Shown here in pieces: positions 53,212-60,774 of a DNA stretch of 64,000 bases (its first letter is position 1; every line of letters starts with the position of its first letter). The stretch is from Candidatus Aenigmatarchaeota archaeon (GTDB lineage Archaea; Aenigmatarchaeota; Aenigmatarchaeia; Aenigmatarchaeales; Aenigmatarchaeaceae): assembly GCA_043814985.1 (NCBI GenBank), contig JBDRJK010000014.1:1-64000 (forward strand), read 5' to 3'. The notes below the pieces were generated by a model. It was not told where the DNA came from. It made no database searches and saw nothing but the letters and a program-made list of their open reading frames with translations. A program made the translations under genes and the position numbers.

Positions 53212-54705
53212 ATGCCAGAAGAACAATACAAAAAATACGAGTTTTTATTCATTCTATCCATTTTTATTATTGGATTTTTATTCATTTATCTAGCTTCCAA
53301 TACACCGATGCTGGGAGAAGACGAAGCCGGTTATGTAAGCTTAGCAAAGGAGTTCATGGGCTTAGAATATGAAAAAAGCATTTATGCAATTGCACCACTG
53401 GCTTCACTTCTTTATGTTCCATTTTTCACTATTTTTGGTCCCTCATTAGGCCTTGCAAAGGCTATAATAGCCTTTTTCGGAATCTTAACAATAATTATGG
53501 TATATCTGTTTTGTAAAAAACTAAACCCAGCATCGTTTTATGGCATCAATATATGCGGTTTGGCATCAATAGCAATCCTTTTGACGATATTCTACTTCCC
53601 ACATTTCATGATGCTATCATATACAGAAATTCCGATAGCATTCTTTTCAATTCTTTTTGTCTATCTTTTACTGGACTTAAAGACGATTAAGGGTGCCGTC
53701 CTTGTAGGAATTATAATGGGTTTATCGTTTTATCTTAAATCTAGTTCTTTAATATTTCCAATTACAATATTTCTATTTTCTTTGATAAAATACATTCTGA
53801 AAAAAGACAAAGAATTTTTCAAACTGTCTATAATATCAATTTTCATATTTAGTCTTTTAATGTTACCTTTCATTATAAGAAACATAATTCTATTCAACTA
53901 TCCATTTGTAGAAGGTTTTAATATTTTCTTTGAAATGCCCAGAGTTATAGAACCAACTTGGGCTTCAGCCGAAGCAGCCAAACTTATATCAATTCCAGTA
54001 AACCTTTTCAACGTTTTCGGGTTTGTGCCCCTTTTCTTTTGTATTATTGGTATGATTTATTCATGGCAAACAAAAAATAAGAAAATAATCCCATCCATAT
54101 TTCTATTTTTACTTTTTATTCTCGTTTTTTATTTTAGAAACATTCTTGGAATCGCCATCGGCGATCCTAGGTATCTTTCCATCATATTTCCACAAATAGC
54201 TGTATTAGGGGGCTTTTACATAAGCCAAGTTGCAAAAATGAAGAAATACATTTCATTACTGGTGGTTGTGTTTTTCATTTACGCCCTTTCAACTAGCATA
54301 ACAGTTGCGCTTTCCACATCTCAATCTACAAGATACCCTGATAATTATATACAGGCATTGAGATGGGTAAAACAAAATACAAATGAAGATGATTTGATAT
54401 TCACTGCTTATAGTGGTAGTCTAGCATACTATGGGGAAAGACAAAATGTCTGGGCAGTATCAATGGATGAGTTTCCGGATTTGATGCATTCTACCAATTC
54501 CACTCAAATATACAAGACACTGAAAGAATATGGTATATCTTATATTTTGATATGGAGAGGTATTCTCTCGGATGACTGGATAATACCGGAAAGCAACATA
54601 ATAGGTGTTTTCACCTACAACTTCGCTATCCAGGTTGATGGCGACAAAGAAAATTTCGAGATGGTTTACTCTAACCAGGATAACTTTATTTATAAATTAC
54701 TGTAG
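53212..54705 (+). CDS. GT-C fold membrane glycosyltransferase (ArnT/PMT-like)
   Basis: GEDEAGY, multi-TM, YTE, PRY, C-terminal soluble domain (ALRWVKQNT). Confidence 0.82.
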   Translation: MPEEQYKKYEFLFILSIFIIGFLFIYLASNTPMLGEDEAGYVSLAKEFMGLEYEKSIYAIAPLASLLYVPFFTIFGPSLGLAKAIIAFFGILTIIMVYLFCKKLNPASFYGINICGLASIAILLTIFYFPHFMMLSYTEIPIAFFSILFVYLLLDLKTIKGAVLVGIIMGLSFYLKSSSLIFPITIFLFSLIKYILKKDKEFFKLSIISIFIFSLLMLPFIIRNIILFNYPFVEGFNIFFEMPRVIEPTWASAEAAKLISIPVNLFNVFGFVPLFFCIIGMIYSWQTKNKKIIPSIFLFLLFILVFYFRNILGIAIGDPRYLSIIFPQIAVLGGFYISQVAKMKKYISLLVVVFFIYALSTSITVALSTSQSTRYPDNYIQALRWVKQNTNEDDLIFTAYSGSLAYYGERQNVWAVSMDEFPDLMHSTNSTQIYKTLKEYGISYILIWRGILSDDWIIPESNIIGVFTYNFAIQVDGDKENFEMVYSNQDNFIYKLL

Positions 54706-54729
54706 CTATAAAAATTAAATGGTGATTGG

Positions 54730-54852
54730 TTGAAAGTAATTCTAATAAACCCCCAATATACCCAAGGCTATATTCACAGTACTGTGTCCAGTGGTAAGAA
54801 AATATTATTTTCGGTTAGTATAAGGCATTATCTAAGTGAAAAATATGCCTAG
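54730..54852 (+). pseudogene. orphaned 5' fragment of a radical SAM gene (MKVILINPQYTQGYIHSTVSSG...)
   Basis: GGTGA RBS plus TTG start; first 17 aa align with the N-terminus of 55698..57068 (MVKILAVNPQFTPDYIHS); stops at 54852. Confidence 0.75.
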
Positions 54853-55720
54853 AGGAGTTTATTTGAGAAATGAAAAACATTTGAAACTGTTAGAAGTTGC
54901 AAGATCTGAAATAAAAGTTCCACCTTTCTTAGGCAAACATCATTCTGATGAAACTAAATTAAAGATTAGCCAAAGATTGAAAGGTAGTCAGGTTTGGAAC
55001 AAAGGCAAAAAATTGCCATACGACGTTTGGAATAAGGGTATGACAAAAGAAACGAATAAGAAGTTAAAAATTATTGGTCAAAAGATATCAATTTCCAATA
55101 AAGGTAGAAAGGTTTGGAATAAAGGAAAGGAAAATAAAGAATTGAAACAAAGATGGCAGAATCCAGAATTTAGAAAAATTATGATAGAAATTTCGAAAGA
55201 TATTATGAAGAAAAACTGGAATAATCCAGTATACATAGAAAAAATGGAGAAATTGAGAACTTTTTTCAAAAGAAAAAGAAATGTTCAAGAAATAGAGCGA
55301 TTAAGGAACATTTCAAATAATAGATTAGGAAGTAAAAATTCTGTTGAACAGAATAAGAAGATTAGTGAAGCACGTTTAAGACAGAAGATACCGCATAAGG
55401 ATACTTATCCTGAAATGTTAGTTCAAAAATGCCTAGCAGAAAGGAATATTAATTTCACTACTCATTATTCAATTCTTGGCCAACCAGATATTTTTATAAA
55501 ACCGAACATTTGTGTGTTTATTGATGGTTGTTATTGGCATGGATGTCCAGTTCATTTTCCTGAAAAGATCAATACTAATGATATAAAGATATCTGAAGCT
55601 CTAAGAAAGCAGGGTTATACGGTTATAAGAATTTGGGAACATGAAATCAAAAATAATACTACTAAATGTATAAATAAAATTATGGAGTCAATCGAAAATG
55701 GTCAAGATATTAGCCGTTAA
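54845..55720 (+). mobile_element. free-standing homing-endonuclease-like gene (NUMOD3 + WNKG repeats + Vsr/DUF559-like nuclease)
   Basis: GKHHSDETKLKIS, three VWNKG repeats, TYPE, PDIF, FIDGCYWHGCP, IRIWEHE; AT-rich. Confidence 0.85.
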
Positions 55721-57068
55721 TCCTCAATTTACGCCAGATTACATACACTCGGCTCGTTGGGATTCTCTGTCACTCAGTGGTAGCCACTGGTATCCTGTGT
55801 TTTTATCATATATGGTGAGCTTGTTAGAAAAGCACAGCCATGAATGTAGGCTTGTTGATGCCGAGGCGGAGAACCTTAGCGACAGTCAAGTCCTGAGGAT
55901 TGCCAAAGAGTTCAAGCCGGATTTTTCCGTGCTGTACATCTCAGAGAGGGGACTAGGCGCCAACATGAATCTGGCAAAATCTATAAAGAACAGCACAAAA
56001 TCCAAAATAATTTTCGTAGGACCTTGGTGTTCTCTGGTAAAGAAGGAGAAAGTCAACAAGAAGATTGTCGACTTTTTCATAGAAGGCGAGTTTGAGTTCG
56101 CGGTCTTGAAAATAGTTGAAGGAAAAGGCAAGAAAGGATGCATCAGGACAGAGAGACTGACCCCAGAACAGCTGAAGGATCTTGGCTGGGTGACGAAGAT
56201 ATATCAAAAGCATCTGAACATCAACAACTACAGGATAAGTTCTCTTGAGCATAGGTTTGTGGATTTGCTGACATCGAGGAAATGCTACTGGGGCAGGTGC
56301 TCGTTCTGTCTGTGGCCATCAACAATACTACAAAAGGGTGGCTATGTCGAAAGAGATATTGAAGATTCTTTGGATGAGATTGAATGGGCTTGGAACAATT
56401 TGAATATAAAAGAAATATTCATTCAGGATGATACAATATCGCCAAAAAGGGCGAAAGAGCTTTCAGAAGGTCTGATAAAGAGATGCTTGAAAATAAGCTG
56501 GGCCTGCTATGCCAGAGGCGATTTGGCGTTCACTCAGAAAATAGTCAACATGATGGCAAAGAGCGGCTGCCGCGTCGTTCACATAGGTTTTGAGAGCGGA
56601 AACAATGAAATACTAAAGAGGATGAACAAGGGAACGACTGTCGAGAACCTGACTGAGGTCAGCAGGCGTTTCAGGAAGGTGGGCATAGATGTTCACGGCG
56701 ATTTCATGATTGGGAATATCGGGGAAACACGAGAGACCATTCAGCAGACAATGAACTTTATCAAGAAGCTCGACCTCTCAATAGTCCAGATAGCGCCGCC
56801 AAAACTGTATGGTAATTGCAAGATTTACGAGTGGTATGCCCATAACAACGAGGGAGCGTACATAGACAAGAGAGGATTGCCGAACCTTAAGGACATAACG
56901 TACGAGGAGATGGTTGCCTTGGTGAAGAAGGGACTCAGAGACTATTACATGAGCAAGGAGTTCATATCAAGGACGCTGACCCATCCCTCTCAATTAAAAA
57001 GAGTTATCGGTTCTGCTATTCCGGCAATCAAGTTCATGTTCAGCGGAAGAAAAGAGGTACCTGTCTGA
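55698..57068 (+). CDS. cobalamin-binding radical SAM enzyme (7), HpnJ-like
   Basis: NP...SARW...WYP, GEFE, CYWGRCSFC, QDDT, GFESG. Confidence 0.9.
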   Translation: MVKILAVNPQFTPDYIHSARWDSLSLSGSHWYPVFLSYMVSLLEKHSHECRLVDAEAENLSDSQVLRIAKEFKPDFSVLYISERGLGANMNLAKSIKNSTKSKIIFVGPWCSLVKKEKVNKKIVDFFIEGEFEFAVLKIVEGKGKKGCIRTERLTPEQLKDLGWVTKIYQKHLNINNYRISSLEHRFVDLLTSRKCYWGRCSFCLWPSTILQKGGYVERDIEDSLDEIEWAWNNLNIKEIFIQDDTISPKRAKELSEGLIKRCLKISWACYARGDLAFTQKIVNMMAKSGCRVVHIGFESGNNEILKRMNKGTTVENLTEVSRRFRKVGIDVHGDFMIGNIGETRETIQQTMNFIKKLDLSIVQIAPPKLYGNCKIYEWYAHNNEGAYIDKRGLPNLKDITYEEMVALVKKGLRDYYMSKEFISRTLTHPSQLKRVIGSAIPAIKFMFSGRKEVPV

Positions 57069-57077
57069 GATGATTCA

Positions 57078-58025
57078 ATGAAACCCAGCATAACTGTTTT
57101 GGTAACAATAAAAAACTCAGCCCGTACAATAAAGAAATGTGTTGACTCGCTTCTGAAACAGAACTACAATAACTACAAGGTTTATGTTGTCGATTCCTTT
57201 TCCAATGACGGCAGCTATGAGATACTGAAAAGTTATGGAAAGAAAATAAAGTTCGAGCAGTTCAAAAGCACGCCACCTCAGGCTTACAATCATGCAATCA
57301 AGAAGATAAATACAACATTCGTTGCATTCACTGACGGCGACTGTGTGGCTGATAGTAACTGGTTAAAGAATTTAATTTCAGGATTCAAGACAGAAGATAT
57401 AGCAGCAGTTGCTGGTTTCTGCAAGACGCCTAGAAACGTTAACTTCCTACAGAAACTAGTTGGCATTGAGCTGGAGAACAGGTTCAAGAAGTTTCCCAAA
57501 TACATACCTCGTGCACCTACCATGAACATTTGTGTGAGAACCAAGATTCTAAAGAAACTTATGTTCAACAGCAAGCTTTTTGTTGGTTATGACACTGATT
57601 TGGGATACAGAGTGATAAGTACAGGGAAGAAAATCCTTTACGAACCAAAAGCAGTGATATATCATTATCACAGGGCCACATGGAAAAAAATATTCAAGCA
57701 GCAAATGACTTATGCAAGGTACCTACCCCTGATATATTCCAAGCACAAGAAAAGAGTTGGAGGTGATTACATATCCAAGCCAACCATGATGTACCACCTA
57801 GCTGTATTTTATCTGGCTGCTTTATTTCTATTCTTGAGTATCTTCTCAATAACATCTCTAGATTTTTTCGGCATATTTGTTTTGATATTCCTACTGATAT
57901 CCGTATTTGAGTTTCTGAGCTTCAAAACGAAGAAGGAATATTTCCCCTACTTCCTTATGATATTCTTTGTCAGAACGCTTGCATGGTCAATAGGACTAGT
58001 TCTTGGCATACTTGGAAGAGATTAG
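57078..58025 (+). CDS. GT2 glycosyltransferase with C-terminal TM helices
   Basis: VDSFSNDG, FTDGDC, YDTDLGYR. Confidence 0.9.
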   Translation: MKPSITVLVTIKNSARTIKKCVDSLLKQNYNNYKVYVVDSFSNDGSYEILKSYGKKIKFEQFKSTPPQAYNHAIKKINTTFVAFTDGDCVADSNWLKNLISGFKTEDIAAVAGFCKTPRNVNFLQKLVGIELENRFKKFPKYIPRAPTMNICVRTKILKKLMFNSKLFVGYDTDLGYRVISTGKKILYEPKAVIYHYHRATWKKIFKQQMTYARYLPLIYSKHKKRVGGDYISKPTMMYHLAVFYLAALFLFLSIFSITSLDFFGIFVLIFLLISVFEFLSFKTKKEYFPYFLMIFFVRTLAWSIGLVLGILGRD

Positions 58026-58723
58026 AAAATTCTTCCCAATATTTCCTTCTTGTACTTCATGGCAAACTTGATGTAACCGTGAGCTAGTTTGGAGAAGTTG
58101 CCTTTCTTGCCGCACTGATAGCTGCACCAGACAGAGACAGTTGATATCTTCATCTCTCTCTCCTTGGCTATCTGCAGGATTTCAAGTTCTATACCGAAGC
58201 CCTCCAAGTCAATTCTGGGAAGTATGTACTTGACAGCCTCTCTGGAATAGCACCTGAAGCCTGACGCGACATCAGTGAAGAAGCCCCCAGAAGACAAAAG
58301 CACTACCATGGTTGAGAATACATTGAAAAATATCCTTAATTTTGGATAGCCCCTCAGTTTCATGTACCTTGACCCTATGACAATGTCCGAATATTTCTTC
58401 TTGACCATCAGCTCGACAACAGGTATGTCCTTGGGATCATGCTGGCCGTCAGCGTCAATAGTTACAAGCATATTACCCTTTTCCTTGAGAAAACGCTTGA
58501 AGCCTTGTATTGTCGCATATCCCTTGCCTCGGTTGTCGGGATAGCTAAGCATTATTACCCTCTTGTTATTACCATACTTCTCCATGACAATCTTATATGT
58601 ATTGTCGCAGCTTCCATCATCAACCAGAATAATCCTGTCAACATATTTCAGTGTCTTGCCTATAATATCGTTTATTGTTTTGCTTTCGTTGTAGGCACAA
58701 ATCAATGCATAGGTCCTCATCAA
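58022..58723 (-). CDS. GT2 glycosyltransferase (DPM1-like)
   Basis: AYNE, VDDGSCD, NRGKG, DADGQHDP, GSR, SGFRCY. Confidence 0.92.
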   Translation of the reverse strand: MMRTYALICAYNESKTINDIIGKTLKYVDRIILVDDGSCDNTYKIVMEKYGNNKRVIMLSYPDNRGKGYATIQGFKRFLKEKGNMLVTIDADGQHDPKDIPVVELMVKKKYSDIVIGSRYMKLRGYPKLRIFFNVFSTMVVLLSSGGFFTDVASGFRCYSREAVKYILPRIDLEGFGIELEILQIAKEREMKISTVSVWCSYQCGKKGNFSKLAHGYIKFAMKYKKEILGRIF

Positions 58724-60774
58724 ACGACCTCGTATATCTTTACCTGCTCATTCCTGAACACTTGCTCGAAATGCTCTAGGCCCTGTCCCTCAAGCATGAA
58801 CATCTTGGTGAAAACAGAATCTCTCAGGGTTGGCGGTATCAATACAATGTAAGAATAATGCGCTGGTAACCATGCTGTCATTTGTATTGTCTCATTTACA
58901 AACCTGGCATTTAGCTGTCCCTCAAGAGGCTTGAGCGCTGTTATCATAGAGTTCAATTCCTCTTCAGTGAATGTTATGGAAATAGCTTCTGTCCCGTTAT
59001 AAGTTATAATCTCCTTGAATAGGGCAATGTTTATTCCTTGGACAAGCATTGGTATTGGTGGCTGGGTATTGTACACTAATATCTGTGTCTGCTGTCCCAT
59101 GTCGTAATTTCTAAACATCAAGTTTCCGTTGTTATCAGTGGACCTGGAACTTTCACCAAGCTGTATGTACAAAGGACATGATTCATCTGACACGCCGTCA
59201 CAGCCAGTACCGAAGTATTGCAGCCATCTGAATTTTCCAATCAAGTCATCAGATGCTATCCAATAGACTTTTGGAGAGGTGCCCTGGTATTTTCTTATCA
59301 ATTCCAGTGACTCGTTCTCGTTGCTGGTAACCATTATCTTTCCCAAATCCGTTATCCTGTCGTTGATTGTGTACAGGCAAGTCAACGTACAGTGAGCACC
59401 GTCTGCAAAGTTTCTACGTTCTGCAAGACCGTTGATCATATGTCCCGGATCCCACCACGTGCCGACAATAGAATTTTCCGGAGTTTCAGTCTTTAGGAAA
59501 TTCCAGGCAGCATCCCAGTTAGGGCTCATGTCAGGCCCAAGGCCTTTACCCATCTCCAAACCCATGTTTGCTATAATAAGAACTAGGAATATACTGCCAC
59601 CGATGAAAAACGATTTAACGACTTTTTCATGGTTTTTAATCCTTTCCATTAACATGCCAAAACCATATCCTATCATAGAAATAAAAATCACGCTTGTGAA
59701 CTCTGTAAATCTTATGCCCCTGACTGTCGTGTACAATCCTACAACAAACAGAGTCATAAGAAAAGCCAGGTTAAAGAATTTATTCTTTTTGTAACTGCTG
59801 TAAAAACCAAATGATATTAACAAAATAAATACCAGAAATATCAGGGAGTCAATCAAGCCATCTCCCATTGAAAACCTTCCCATTGCCAAAATCCACCCAC
59901 CCAATTCAAATATGCTGAAGGGTTGAAGTTCTGCAATGGAAATATTCACTATCCACGTTTCAGGGTTCTGTGAAAATACCATCAAAGACCTGAACGACTT
60001 TAGCGGCTCAACTCCTGTTAAAAATCCTATGACAATCAAGCCTATTAAGAGGGCAACCAGAACCTTGCTCAAGCCCTTAATTTCCTTGAAGATGTCAATA
60101 TCGGTTTTTCCAAGATTTTTCAGAACCAGACTTAAAATAATGAAAATCACTGCAGCTATCACCATTATGGCATAGGTATAGGAAAACAGTGTCCATGTCA
60201 GCATGAAGCATGAGAATGATATCAATGCCAGGCAAATGCTGCTTATAGTCTTCCTTTTCAAGGCATAAACGCCAGCGAACATTGTAAGCAGGATGAAGAA
60301 GAGAACCAATTGGTCCGTATCATAGGAACTGCCGAATGTTCTGACCAAGACCTGAGGCGCAGAAGCTACTAGGATCGCGCTAAAAAGGCCTCCATATTCG
60401 TTTGACAATTCTTTAACCAATAGAAATGCAGGAATTGCTATTATGGCACCATAAAAGGCAGATGCAAGGGCTGATGTTGTCAAAAGGCTCATGCCAAAAT
60501 TCTGCAGCAGCCAATAGAGCATGGTGGTTATATAGAACATGAGAGGGGCTGTGTAATCGTAATCAACAATTTTCCCCACATAATATGAAATTTCGTCCCA
60601 TACTGGCAGATGCCCCCAGTTTGCCATGTAATAGGTCTGCCTGTACATGAAAACAGGGTCGAATGACAATATCCTATCAGGGACTATGTTGAACGATCTT
60701 ATGTAAAAACTGAAGGCAACTATGCCTAACAGCACGAATACATACCAGTATTTTTTCAAAATATTTACTTTCAT
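58720..60774 (-). CDS. aglB: oligosaccharyltransferase AglB (STT3 family)
   Basis: FDP, YDTD, SIAE, RF, WWDPGH, DLIGK; multi-TM N-terminal half. Confidence 0.93.
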   Translation of the reverse strand: MKVNILKKYWYVFVLLGIVAFSFYIRSFNIVPDRILSFDPVFMYRQTYYMANWGHLPVWDEISYYVGKIVDYDYTAPLMFYITTMLYWLLQNFGMSLLTTSALASAFYGAIIAIPAFLLVKELSNEYGGLFSAILVASAPQVLVRTFGSSYDTDQLVLFFILLTMFAGVYALKRKTISSICLALISFSCFMLTWTLFSYTYAIMVIAAVIFIILSLVLKNLGKTDIDIFKEIKGLSKVLVALLIGLIVIGFLTGVEPLKSFRSLMVFSQNPETWIVNISIAELQPFSIFELGGWILAMGRFSMGDGLIDSLIFLVFILLISFGFYSSYKKNKFFNLAFLMTLFVVGLYTTVRGIRFTEFTSVIFISMIGYGFGMLMERIKNHEKVVKSFFIGGSIFLVLIIANMGLEMGKGLGPDMSPNWDAAWNFLKTETPENSIVGTWWDPGHMINGLAERRNFADGAHCTLTCLYTINDRITDLGKIMVTSNENESLELIRKYQGTSPKVYWIASDDLIGKFRWLQYFGTGCDGVSDESCPLYIQLGESSRSTDNNGNLMFRNYDMGQQTQILVYNTQPPIPMLVQGINIALFKEIITYNGTEAISITFTEEELNSMITALKPLEGQLNARFVNETIQMTAWLPAHYSYIVLIPPTLRDSVFTKMFMLEGQGLEHFEQVFRNEQVKIYEVV

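Follow-up and report, generated by a model that had tools for sequence, protein, structure and literature searches.

A Vsr-like endonuclease gene between a radical SAM gene stub and a complete radical SAM allele in a glycan-tailoring island of an Aenigmatarchaeota archaeon

Genes and features at the locus

We investigated a 64,000-nucleotide (nt) stretch of DNA from a Candidatus Aenigmatarchaeota archaeon (assembly GCA_043814985.1, contig JBDRJK010000014.1, positions 1 to 64,000; hereafter the window), in which a free-standing homing-endonuclease-type gene lies between a short 5' stub of a B12-binding radical SAM gene and a complete gene of the same family. An earlier reading of the letters (hereafter the first-pass annotation) had reported this succession of stub, endonuclease gene and full gene, and the observation is real. 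The locus may be the scar of an endonuclease-driven replacement of a whole gene. Its features are listed below; G002 denotes a genome of the same genus, G000 the window genome itself, and clades A and B are two groups of radical SAM alleles defined in the next section.

53212..54705, + strand: upstream gene for a 497-aa multi-pass membrane protein (open reading frame, ORF; stop TAG at 54703-54705)
54721..54726, + strand: GGTGAT, Shine-Dalgarno-like site of the stub, as read in the sequence
54730..54796, + strand: stub, the putative first 22 codons of a former resident radical SAM gene, TTG start, five codons of the RWD region being absent
54775..54786, unstranded: perfect 12-nt palindrome CACAGTACTGTG (spacer 0), exactly at the stub's five-codon loss
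54789..54796, + strand: left copy of CAGTGGTA, the final 8 nt of the stub
54797..54844, + strand: endonuclease leader, with an AT-rich dyad GAAAAT-ATT-ATTTTC at 54798-54812 and a TATA-like GTATAAGG at 54818-54825
54845..55720, + strand: free-standing homing-endonuclease-type gene (291 aa from ATG 54845; 294 aa from GTG 54836)
55698..57068, + strand: complete B12-binding radical SAM gene of clade A (456 aa; GGAG at 55684-55687)
55775..55789, unstranded: dyad CAGTGG-TAG-CCACTG, holding the right copy of CAGTGGTA at 55775-55782
57078..58025, + strand: GT2 glycosyltransferase gene (Pfam), at which synteny with G002 resumes

Over 53723-55963, the window and a Logan contig of run X2 agree at every position, and the layout is therefore no assembly artefact. 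Translated from TTG 54730, the stub reads MKVILINPQYTQGYIHSTVSSG and then runs through non-homologous codons to a TAG at 54850-54852 (a 40-codon ORF). Its equipment with a ribosome-binding site, which had been claimed from the letters, is borne out by the GGTGAT at 54721-54726; an AGGTGA lies at an equal distance from the ATG in both G002 variants of the orthologous gene, and we read the GGTGAT as probably retained from the resident gene. The complete gene starts MVKILAVNPQFTPDYIHSARWDSLSLSG (in a longer N-terminal reading, MVKILAVNPQFTPDYIHSARWDSLSLSGSHWYP), and its ATG at 55698 stands 23 nt inside the endonuclease ORF, which is the overlap with the endonuclease stop that had been described. 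The stop of the stub in turn overlaps the endonuclease ATG (ATGCCTAG), so that the three ORFs may be translationally coupled. TATA-like boxes are found ~24-25 nt upstream of both the endonuclease and the radical SAM ATG; the assignment of GTATAAGG as a putative promoter element, like that of the other presumed expression signals, follows archaeal consensus sequences.

The product of 55698-57068 matches the radical SAM family PF04055 (9.2e-20) and the B12-binding family PF02310 (8e-07, at 29.4 bits, just below the 32.1 cut-off), and its translation contains CYWGRCSFC (CxxxCxxC). By these features, it is predicted to be a B12-binding radical SAM enzyme. The ORF between the two copies matches (i) NUMOD3 at residues 33-59 (4.1e-07), a region with three WNKGK repeats in the translation, (ii) Vsr at residues 183-236 (1.3e-09), and (iii) DUF559 (2e-05) in Pfam, in agreement with its first description as a free-standing NUMOD3/Vsr-like gene. 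Its closest solved relative in phmmer searches is the catalytic domain of I-Bth0305I (3r3p_A, E = 5.4e-4, residues 189-276), and E. coli Vsr (1cw0) is a weaker match (E = 0.02). Residues E193, D218, D230, H235, and D249 align with E, D196, N208, H213, and D222 of I-Bth0305I (hand count; roles as described in PMC3239194), with D230 at the x position of the EDxHD motif, and all five are invariant in 9/9 aligned homologues. The gene product is, as far as its sequence tells, an EDxHD/Vsr-like protein of homing-endonuclease type with intact catalytic residues. The gene is present in a single copy in the genome and has a GC content of 29.5%.

Origins of the stub and of the complete gene

We compared both copies of the 5' end with G002 and with other relatives; alleles like that of G002 are termed clade B, and those grouping with the window gene and its relative P0122 are termed clade A. 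The stub is 79.6% identical in DNA to contig C73 of G002 over 49 nt; against another G002 variant, located at an end of contig C52, the identity is 83% over 59 nt, ribosome-binding site included. Over its first 51 nt, the stub shares 39 positions with G002 and 31-36 with each of nine other clade-B loci, as opposed to 28/51 (55%) with the downstream gene, which is itself 59% identical to G002 over the same 51 nt (hand count on codons). At the protein level, 15-16 of 17 residues of the stub match the N-termini of the orthologues. The likeness between the stub and the new start is above chance, because a tblastx comparison of the left and right flanks of the endonuclease gave E = 7.5e-05. The two copies are alike in protein and diverged in DNA over these 51 nt, as the first-pass annotation had it, and then match at 8/8 positions.

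The downstream gene has a different affinity from that of the stub. It is 56% identical to G002 in amino acids and 65.5% in nucleotides over its first two thirds, the last third being not alignable; the DNA of G000 and G002 is 80-91% identical in the conserved part of the window and 74-76% in the island right of 57102 (75.8% over 1445 nt from 57102). When the gene was scanned against G002 in a 30-residue sliding window, no step in identity was seen after codon 28. Protein searches returned P0122 as the closest relative (82% identity), with P0123-P0137 at 60-82%, and P0122 (MTRIMAINPQFVSDYIHSARWDSISLSG) has the unusual N-terminus of the window gene. A quick maximum-likelihood tree of 59 rows placed these two genes as sisters within a clade supported at 99-100% by the Shimodaira-Hasegawa-like approximate likelihood ratio test (SH-aLRT), and G002 groups with P0138 and P0139 in another clade, its gene being at the syntenic place. 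Furthermore, an approximately unbiased (AU) test on a 22-row tree rejected the alternative in which the window gene joins the G002 group (delta lnL 309, p = 9.5e-07).

Alleles free of the endonuclease were sought in related genomes, of which 25/61 contain a radical SAM homologue at E<=1e-40, the best being G002 (56%) and G012, a genome of the same family (52%). The G002 gene begins MKVLLINPQYVQGYIHSARWDSITISGSHWYP, the G012 gene begins MRIMLINPQYVEGYIHSARWDGLTISGSHWYP, and eight further loci are alike. The endonuclease-free relatives start M(K/R)(V/I)xLINPQ(Y/F)..YIHSARWD, much as had been predicted for empty alleles (MKVILINPQY...IHSARWD). Among 42 radical SAM loci compared, the endonuclease is present in the window alone, and none of the 41 related loci contains a stub, a second copy of the N-terminus, or the endonuclease; a stub shared with empty alleles, which had been named in advance as a sign against the insertion, was looked for in these loci. 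There was no clade-A locus among the two loci from one metagenome scan, and a scan of a genome collection gave 20 loci, all with <=59% identity to the window gene; related loci are on record as Aenigmatarchaeota and other DPANN archaea. No contig joining across the endonuclease was found in runs X1-X4, which proves nothing, as contigs drop rare variants. A survey for short stub proteins with an N-terminal profile gave four matches, all on contigs of ~1.1 kb or less.

By these comparisons, the downstream gene is shown to be, as judged from its relationships, a whole foreign clade-A allele; its new 5' end is identified as the native start of that allele, because the 5' end and the body share both the P0122 clade and the N-terminus. 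The stub is likewise identified, from its sequence affinity, as the relic of a G002-like resident gene. Since the stub resembles G002 while the 5' end and the body group with P0122, the gene would have been replaced as a whole and not merely re-headed. Of the overall interpretation offered by the first-pass annotation, the intronless endonuclease, the intact downstream gene, and the predicted start of empty alleles have stood; the proposal that the element supplies only a new N-terminus to a resident gene finds no support, the entire gene being foreign by these comparisons.

Two related loci show irregularities of their own at the 5' part of the gene. On a metagenome contig (L037:4001-4318), a radical SAM gene of the same family is truncated after ~80 codons, preceded by the usual methyltransferase and followed by unrelated genes, with no endonuclease within 4 kb on either side. 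In G002, two contigs end and begin in the same ~115 nt (L076 on C52, 1-120, and L077/L011 on C73, 1-120), a stretch comprising the 3' end of a radical SAM paralogue and the 5' end of the orthologous gene, with about a dozen differing positions between C52 and C73 (by eye). This overlap stems either from heterogeneity among strains or from a repeat of the 5' end that broke the assembly exactly there.

The join, the endonuclease, and the competing readings

The stub comprises 22 codons up to Ser-Gly, as compared with 27 in 10/10 orthologous loci, and therefore lacks 15 nt, in accordance with the first description of the locus. Its homology to the orthologues stops after codon 17-18, at the palindrome CACAGTACTGTG. 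Over its final 8 nt, the stub agrees with the clade-A gene in register at 8/8 positions, as against 0/8 for the 8 nt before them, and the Ser-Gly codons are AGT GGT as in the downstream gene, with TCN for Ser in 10/10 clade-B loci. The two copies of CAGTGGTA, which had been correctly placed at 54789 and 55775 with the second inside the dyad CAGTGG-TAG-CCACTG, are in identical codon phase (C/AGT/GGT/A, codon boundaries marked by slashes). The count of this 8-mer alone is not significant (3 in 64 kb vs 1.06 expected, with at least 3 in 11/100 shuffles); it is the register of the copies, and not their count, that is the telling point.

The DNA in which the stub breaks off is the best-conserved part of the radical SAM gene and encodes the motif IHSARWDS..SGSHWYP. 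If the stub were joined to the body, the dyad CCAGTGG-TAG-CCACTGG would be rebuilt, with the join at its centre. Because dyads with arms of at least 6 cover 3.8% of the window positions, the join would fall at a dyad by coincidence with a chance of ~0.04. The family prototype, I-Bth0305I, is described as homodimeric, with a 14-bp pseudopalindromic target that has the cleavage position at its centre and adjoins the insertion site (PMC3239194), and the resemblance of the dyad at the join to this type of target is suggestive. Two full dyads, CACAGTACTGTG and GAAAAT-ATT-ATTTTC, are present within 38 nt (54775-54812) around the join, with a CCAGTGG half-site between them.

We consider it about an even bet (probability roughly 0.5) that the locus is the scar of an endonuclease-driven whole-gene replacement. 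The ancestor's N-glycan tailoring island would have held a clade-B B12-radical-SAM gene like that of G002, and in the donor DNA the endonuclease gene would have immediately preceded a clade-A radical SAM gene. The resident gene would have been broken inside the conserved 5' motif, presumably by the donor's EDxHD/Vsr-type homing endonuclease, and repair would have copied the endonuclease gene together with the complete clade-A gene from the donor, by a route that we infer. The right-hand crossover would have occurred only at or beyond the 3' end of the gene, because the donor and recipient genes share only ~65% of their DNA, and the left end would have been joined irregularly, with (i) the loss of five codons, (ii) the 12-nt palindrome, and (iii) a perfect in-register match to the donor gene over 8 nt. 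The 22 codons of the old gene and its ribosome-binding site would remain as a dead stub. Such an element would be harmless because the cell retains a complete working gene, so that splicing would be unneeded.

Several observations weigh against this replacement scenario. The endonuclease is named as the probable maker of the break from its position alone, and the scenario is built on one occupied allele. The occupied allele keeps the 6-3-6 of the dyad and, if this is the target, would have no protection against self-cutting; moreover, the dyad is missing from 10 clade-B alleles. Of 23 further loci that encode relatives of this endonuclease (2 archaeal and 21 viral), none showed a convincing duplication of the flanks; the matches were of the composition type only, and most fell in G+C-rich loci. 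In any case, the glycan island has a mosaic make-up, the gene left of the stub also differing from G002, and stubs can arise without an endonuclease, since the 80-codon stub of L037 has none nearby. Finally, the G002 group for the AU test was chosen with the first tree already known.

Some of these points are shared with the strongest competitor of the replacement scenario, which we regard as possible though clearly the less probable of the two. It holds that the stub is an ordinary gene-shuffling scar in a hyper-variable glycan island, the resident gene having been replaced via illegitimate or homeologous recombination, and that the endonuclease travelled along or landed later and made no break; as such a passenger, it would leave the locus an ordinary recombination scar. 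The DNA on both sides of the stub is unlike that of G002, L037 provides an endonuclease-free stub of the same family, the island contains at least seven radical SAM paralogues and many glycosyltransferases, and no stub was found at any other examined locus of the endonuclease family, all of which would suit this account. It would leave to chance, however, that the endonuclease is located exactly between the stub and the gene, 48 nt past the join, and that the stub, in register with the new copy, breaks off in the gene's best-conserved DNA and at a dyad of the prototype's target type; such coincidences are unexpected from a random deletion. The original proposal of the first-pass annotation, in which a 986-bp cassette (leader, endonuclease gene, and the first 85 nt of the radical SAM gene) was inserted after CAGTGGTA into a gene whose body is original, now appears improbable. 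In its favor, in-phase 8-bp direct repeats bound exactly this 986-bp segment, deletion of the segment yields an in-frame gene, and the arrangement would be a mirror image of the mobile endonuclease ORF cassettes described from fungi (PMC3630166); the stub protein also matches clade-A proteins P0125, P0130, and P0136 at 14 of 17-18 residues (hand count), which makes a clade-A origin of the stub possible. These points are outweighed by the common nearest relative of the body and the new 5' end, P0122, with its derived N-terminal signature, by their equal distance from G002 (65% for the body and 55-59% for the new 5' end, in contrast to 80-83% for the stub), and by the even identity past codon 28. 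In addition, the contigs of P0122 and P0222 have lengths that recur for none of the 120 listed homologues of the endonuclease, which is a weak hint that those alleles are endonuclease-free.

Removal of the 986 nt from the RNA, as a group I, group II, or archaeal bulge-helix-bulge intron, with the stub spliced to the body, is in our view highly implausible. The joint would be in frame, and CCAGTGG (54788-54794) can pair with CCACTGG (55784-55790). However, no intron family was matched among the 4227 families of Rfam even at E<=10, the endonuclease ORF occupies nearly the whole segment, and a bulge-helix-bulge could not be drawn at the junctions (by eye only). Furthermore, R20, W21, and D22, invariant in 16/16 and 15/15 aligned homologues, would be absent from the spliced product, and downstream there is a complete gene that has its own start and GGAG. 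The earlier description of the element as intronless is thereby upheld, the host gene being intact downstream.

If the endonuclease did make the break, the locus would be a natural case of a homing endonuclease that spreads without intron or intein, by means of a working substitute gene, and, if the replacement scenario holds, whole enzyme alleles would be exchanged between tiny symbiotic archaea within a gene cluster that decorates the cell surface. It would also offer a candidate target, the DNA encoding IHSARWDS..SGSHWYP, for the uncharacterised EDxHD branch. A wider proposition is that Vsr-type homing endonucleases in DPANN archaea drive whole-gene allele replacement in surface-glycan islands, cutting a conserved 5' motif and installing themselves with a divergent functional allele. 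We put this forward only tentatively, as doubtful on present evidence; were it true, selfish nucleases would be a direct engine of glycan diversity.

Relation to known systems and to other members of the families

The closest published analogue appears to be the mobile endonuclease ORFs (mORFs) of fungal mitochondria, which are reported to create gene hybrids in atp6, atp9, cox2, and nad3 of Glomus (PMC3630166), with an earlier case in atp6 of Allomyces macrogynus (Paquin et al. 1994, as cited in PMC3630166). According to that account, fungal mORFs carry a foreign C-terminal portion of the gene, and the native portion persists as a relic with greater similarity to near relatives (PMC3630166). 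The window shares with them an intron-less endonuclease ORF at a gene end, a gene end duplicated around this ORF (the flanking copies of the tblastx match, with the in-phase CAGTGGTA), and an in-phase join. The displaced end is also native in both, with an identity to a close relative of 91-98% in the reported fungal mORFs and 80-83% here (79.6-83% for the stub against G002), and the functional copy is 64-81% identical there and 55-59% here. In contrast to those mORFs, however, the affected end is the 5' and not the 3' end, the host DNA is an archaeal chromosome and not a mitochondrial one, the nuclease is of the EDxHD/Vsr type and not of the LAGLIDADG or GIY-YIG type, and the endonuclease is unfused to the host ORF. 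The remainder of the gene is not native here either: the entire gene is clade A, without a step in identity, and no hybrid has formed. The locus thus differs from the known cases in its 5' end, its archaeal chromosome, its EDxHD enzyme, and the replacement of an entire gene. N-terminal duplications via intron mobility are reported for Tremella fuciformis in a review (PMC8393795).

Vsr-like endonucleases are described from group I introns, from between split inteins ('fractured genes'), and as stand-alone inserts (PMC2677866). The window gene resembles I-Bth0305I and the Vsr-like ORFs of fractured genes in its N-terminal NUMOD3 and C-terminal Vsr-like domains and in its catalytic residues (PMC3239194, PMC2677866), and I-Bth0305I in the dyad at the presumed insertion point. 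Those ORFs are reported from group I introns of phages or from the gap between two split-intein halves, whereas the window gene is in neither setting; a Pfam scan found no intein domain in the window proteins, and intein halves do not flank the gene. Its host is a DPANN-type archaeon, and its activity as an EDxHD enzyme is a prediction. The free-standing endonucleases of T4-type phages (Seg, Mob) are described as homing without introns, with co-conversion of flanking genes and with homing endonuclease gene (HEG) islands (PMC2988022, PMC2790892), and phage free-standing endonucleases have been linked to the exchange of neighbouring genes (PMC10448857, PMC2988022). The likeness to Seg and Mob lies in an endonuclease gene beside a conserved gene, with adjacent DNA believed to be carried along into the cut genome and with nuclease genes marking the boundaries of exchanged segments. 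As described, the Seg and Mob events have homology on both sides and leave no stub, whereas the window has an irregular left join and a relic of the old gene, in a cellular genome. Full-text literature searches, which were not exhaustive, returned no description of a stub, an endonuclease gene, and a replaced gene in this layout in archaea.

Relatives of the endonuclease were surveyed more widely. The NUMOD3 plus Vsr architecture recurs in 155 homologues at E<=1e-3, which are metagenomic, the nearest having 44% identity. Within the phylum, 17/371 genomes have a match to the Vsr domain; apart from the window, only two of these matches fall in long endonuclease-like ORFs, the others being Vsr genes of ~135 aa. 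These short matches are mostly ordinary repair genes, with C5 DNA methylases as neighbours in 5/5 tested. In another genome of the phylum (L061:1093-2827), a 267-aa ORF with Vsr and DUF559 domains overlaps the first 26 nt of a UbiA prenyltransferase gene; stop and start overlap there as they do in the window, though no stub is present. P0226, which belongs to the P0002 cluster (P0002 being the nearest endonuclease relative, with the 44% identity given above), is reported on a contig of 11,256 nt; an N-truncated clade-B radical SAM protein, P0179, is also on a contig of 11,256 nt, which is possibly the same one.

The surrounding glycan-tailoring island (window 37807-60774) contains seven B12-radical-SAM paralogues, several GT2 and other transferases, SAM methyltransferases, and an STT3/AglB oligosaccharyltransferase gene (58720-60774, − strand); the genome (808 kb, 21 contigs) has nine radical SAM matches in total. 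The upstream 497-aa gene, which the first-pass annotation called a GT-C gene, has no Pfam family at E<=0.01 and was not detected in G002 by DNA search, where another B12-radical-SAM paralogue lies upstream of the orthologous radical SAM gene.

Among metagenomic relatives of the radical SAM gene, six gene calls lose homology in or just after the 5' motif (P0132 from WYP, P0223 from WDS, and P0172, P0176, P0177, and P0179 from LLEK or later); these may be contig ends, miscalls, or further 5' rearrangements. An apparent 1.9-kb match at L057 was rejected as an intein, being two adjacent genes. Clade-A relatives also occur as fractured genes split by an intein, with P0199 and P0209 as N halves and P0175 and P0178 as C halves. 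The N half ends ..FTSRK/CVTGDTKI, the latter being the N part of the intein, and the C half begins with the intein C part, which ends ..HN/CYWGKC (slashes mark the junctions). These junctions place the intein at the first Cys of the CxxxCxxC cluster, so that this radical SAM family has been struck by selfish elements at a second site.

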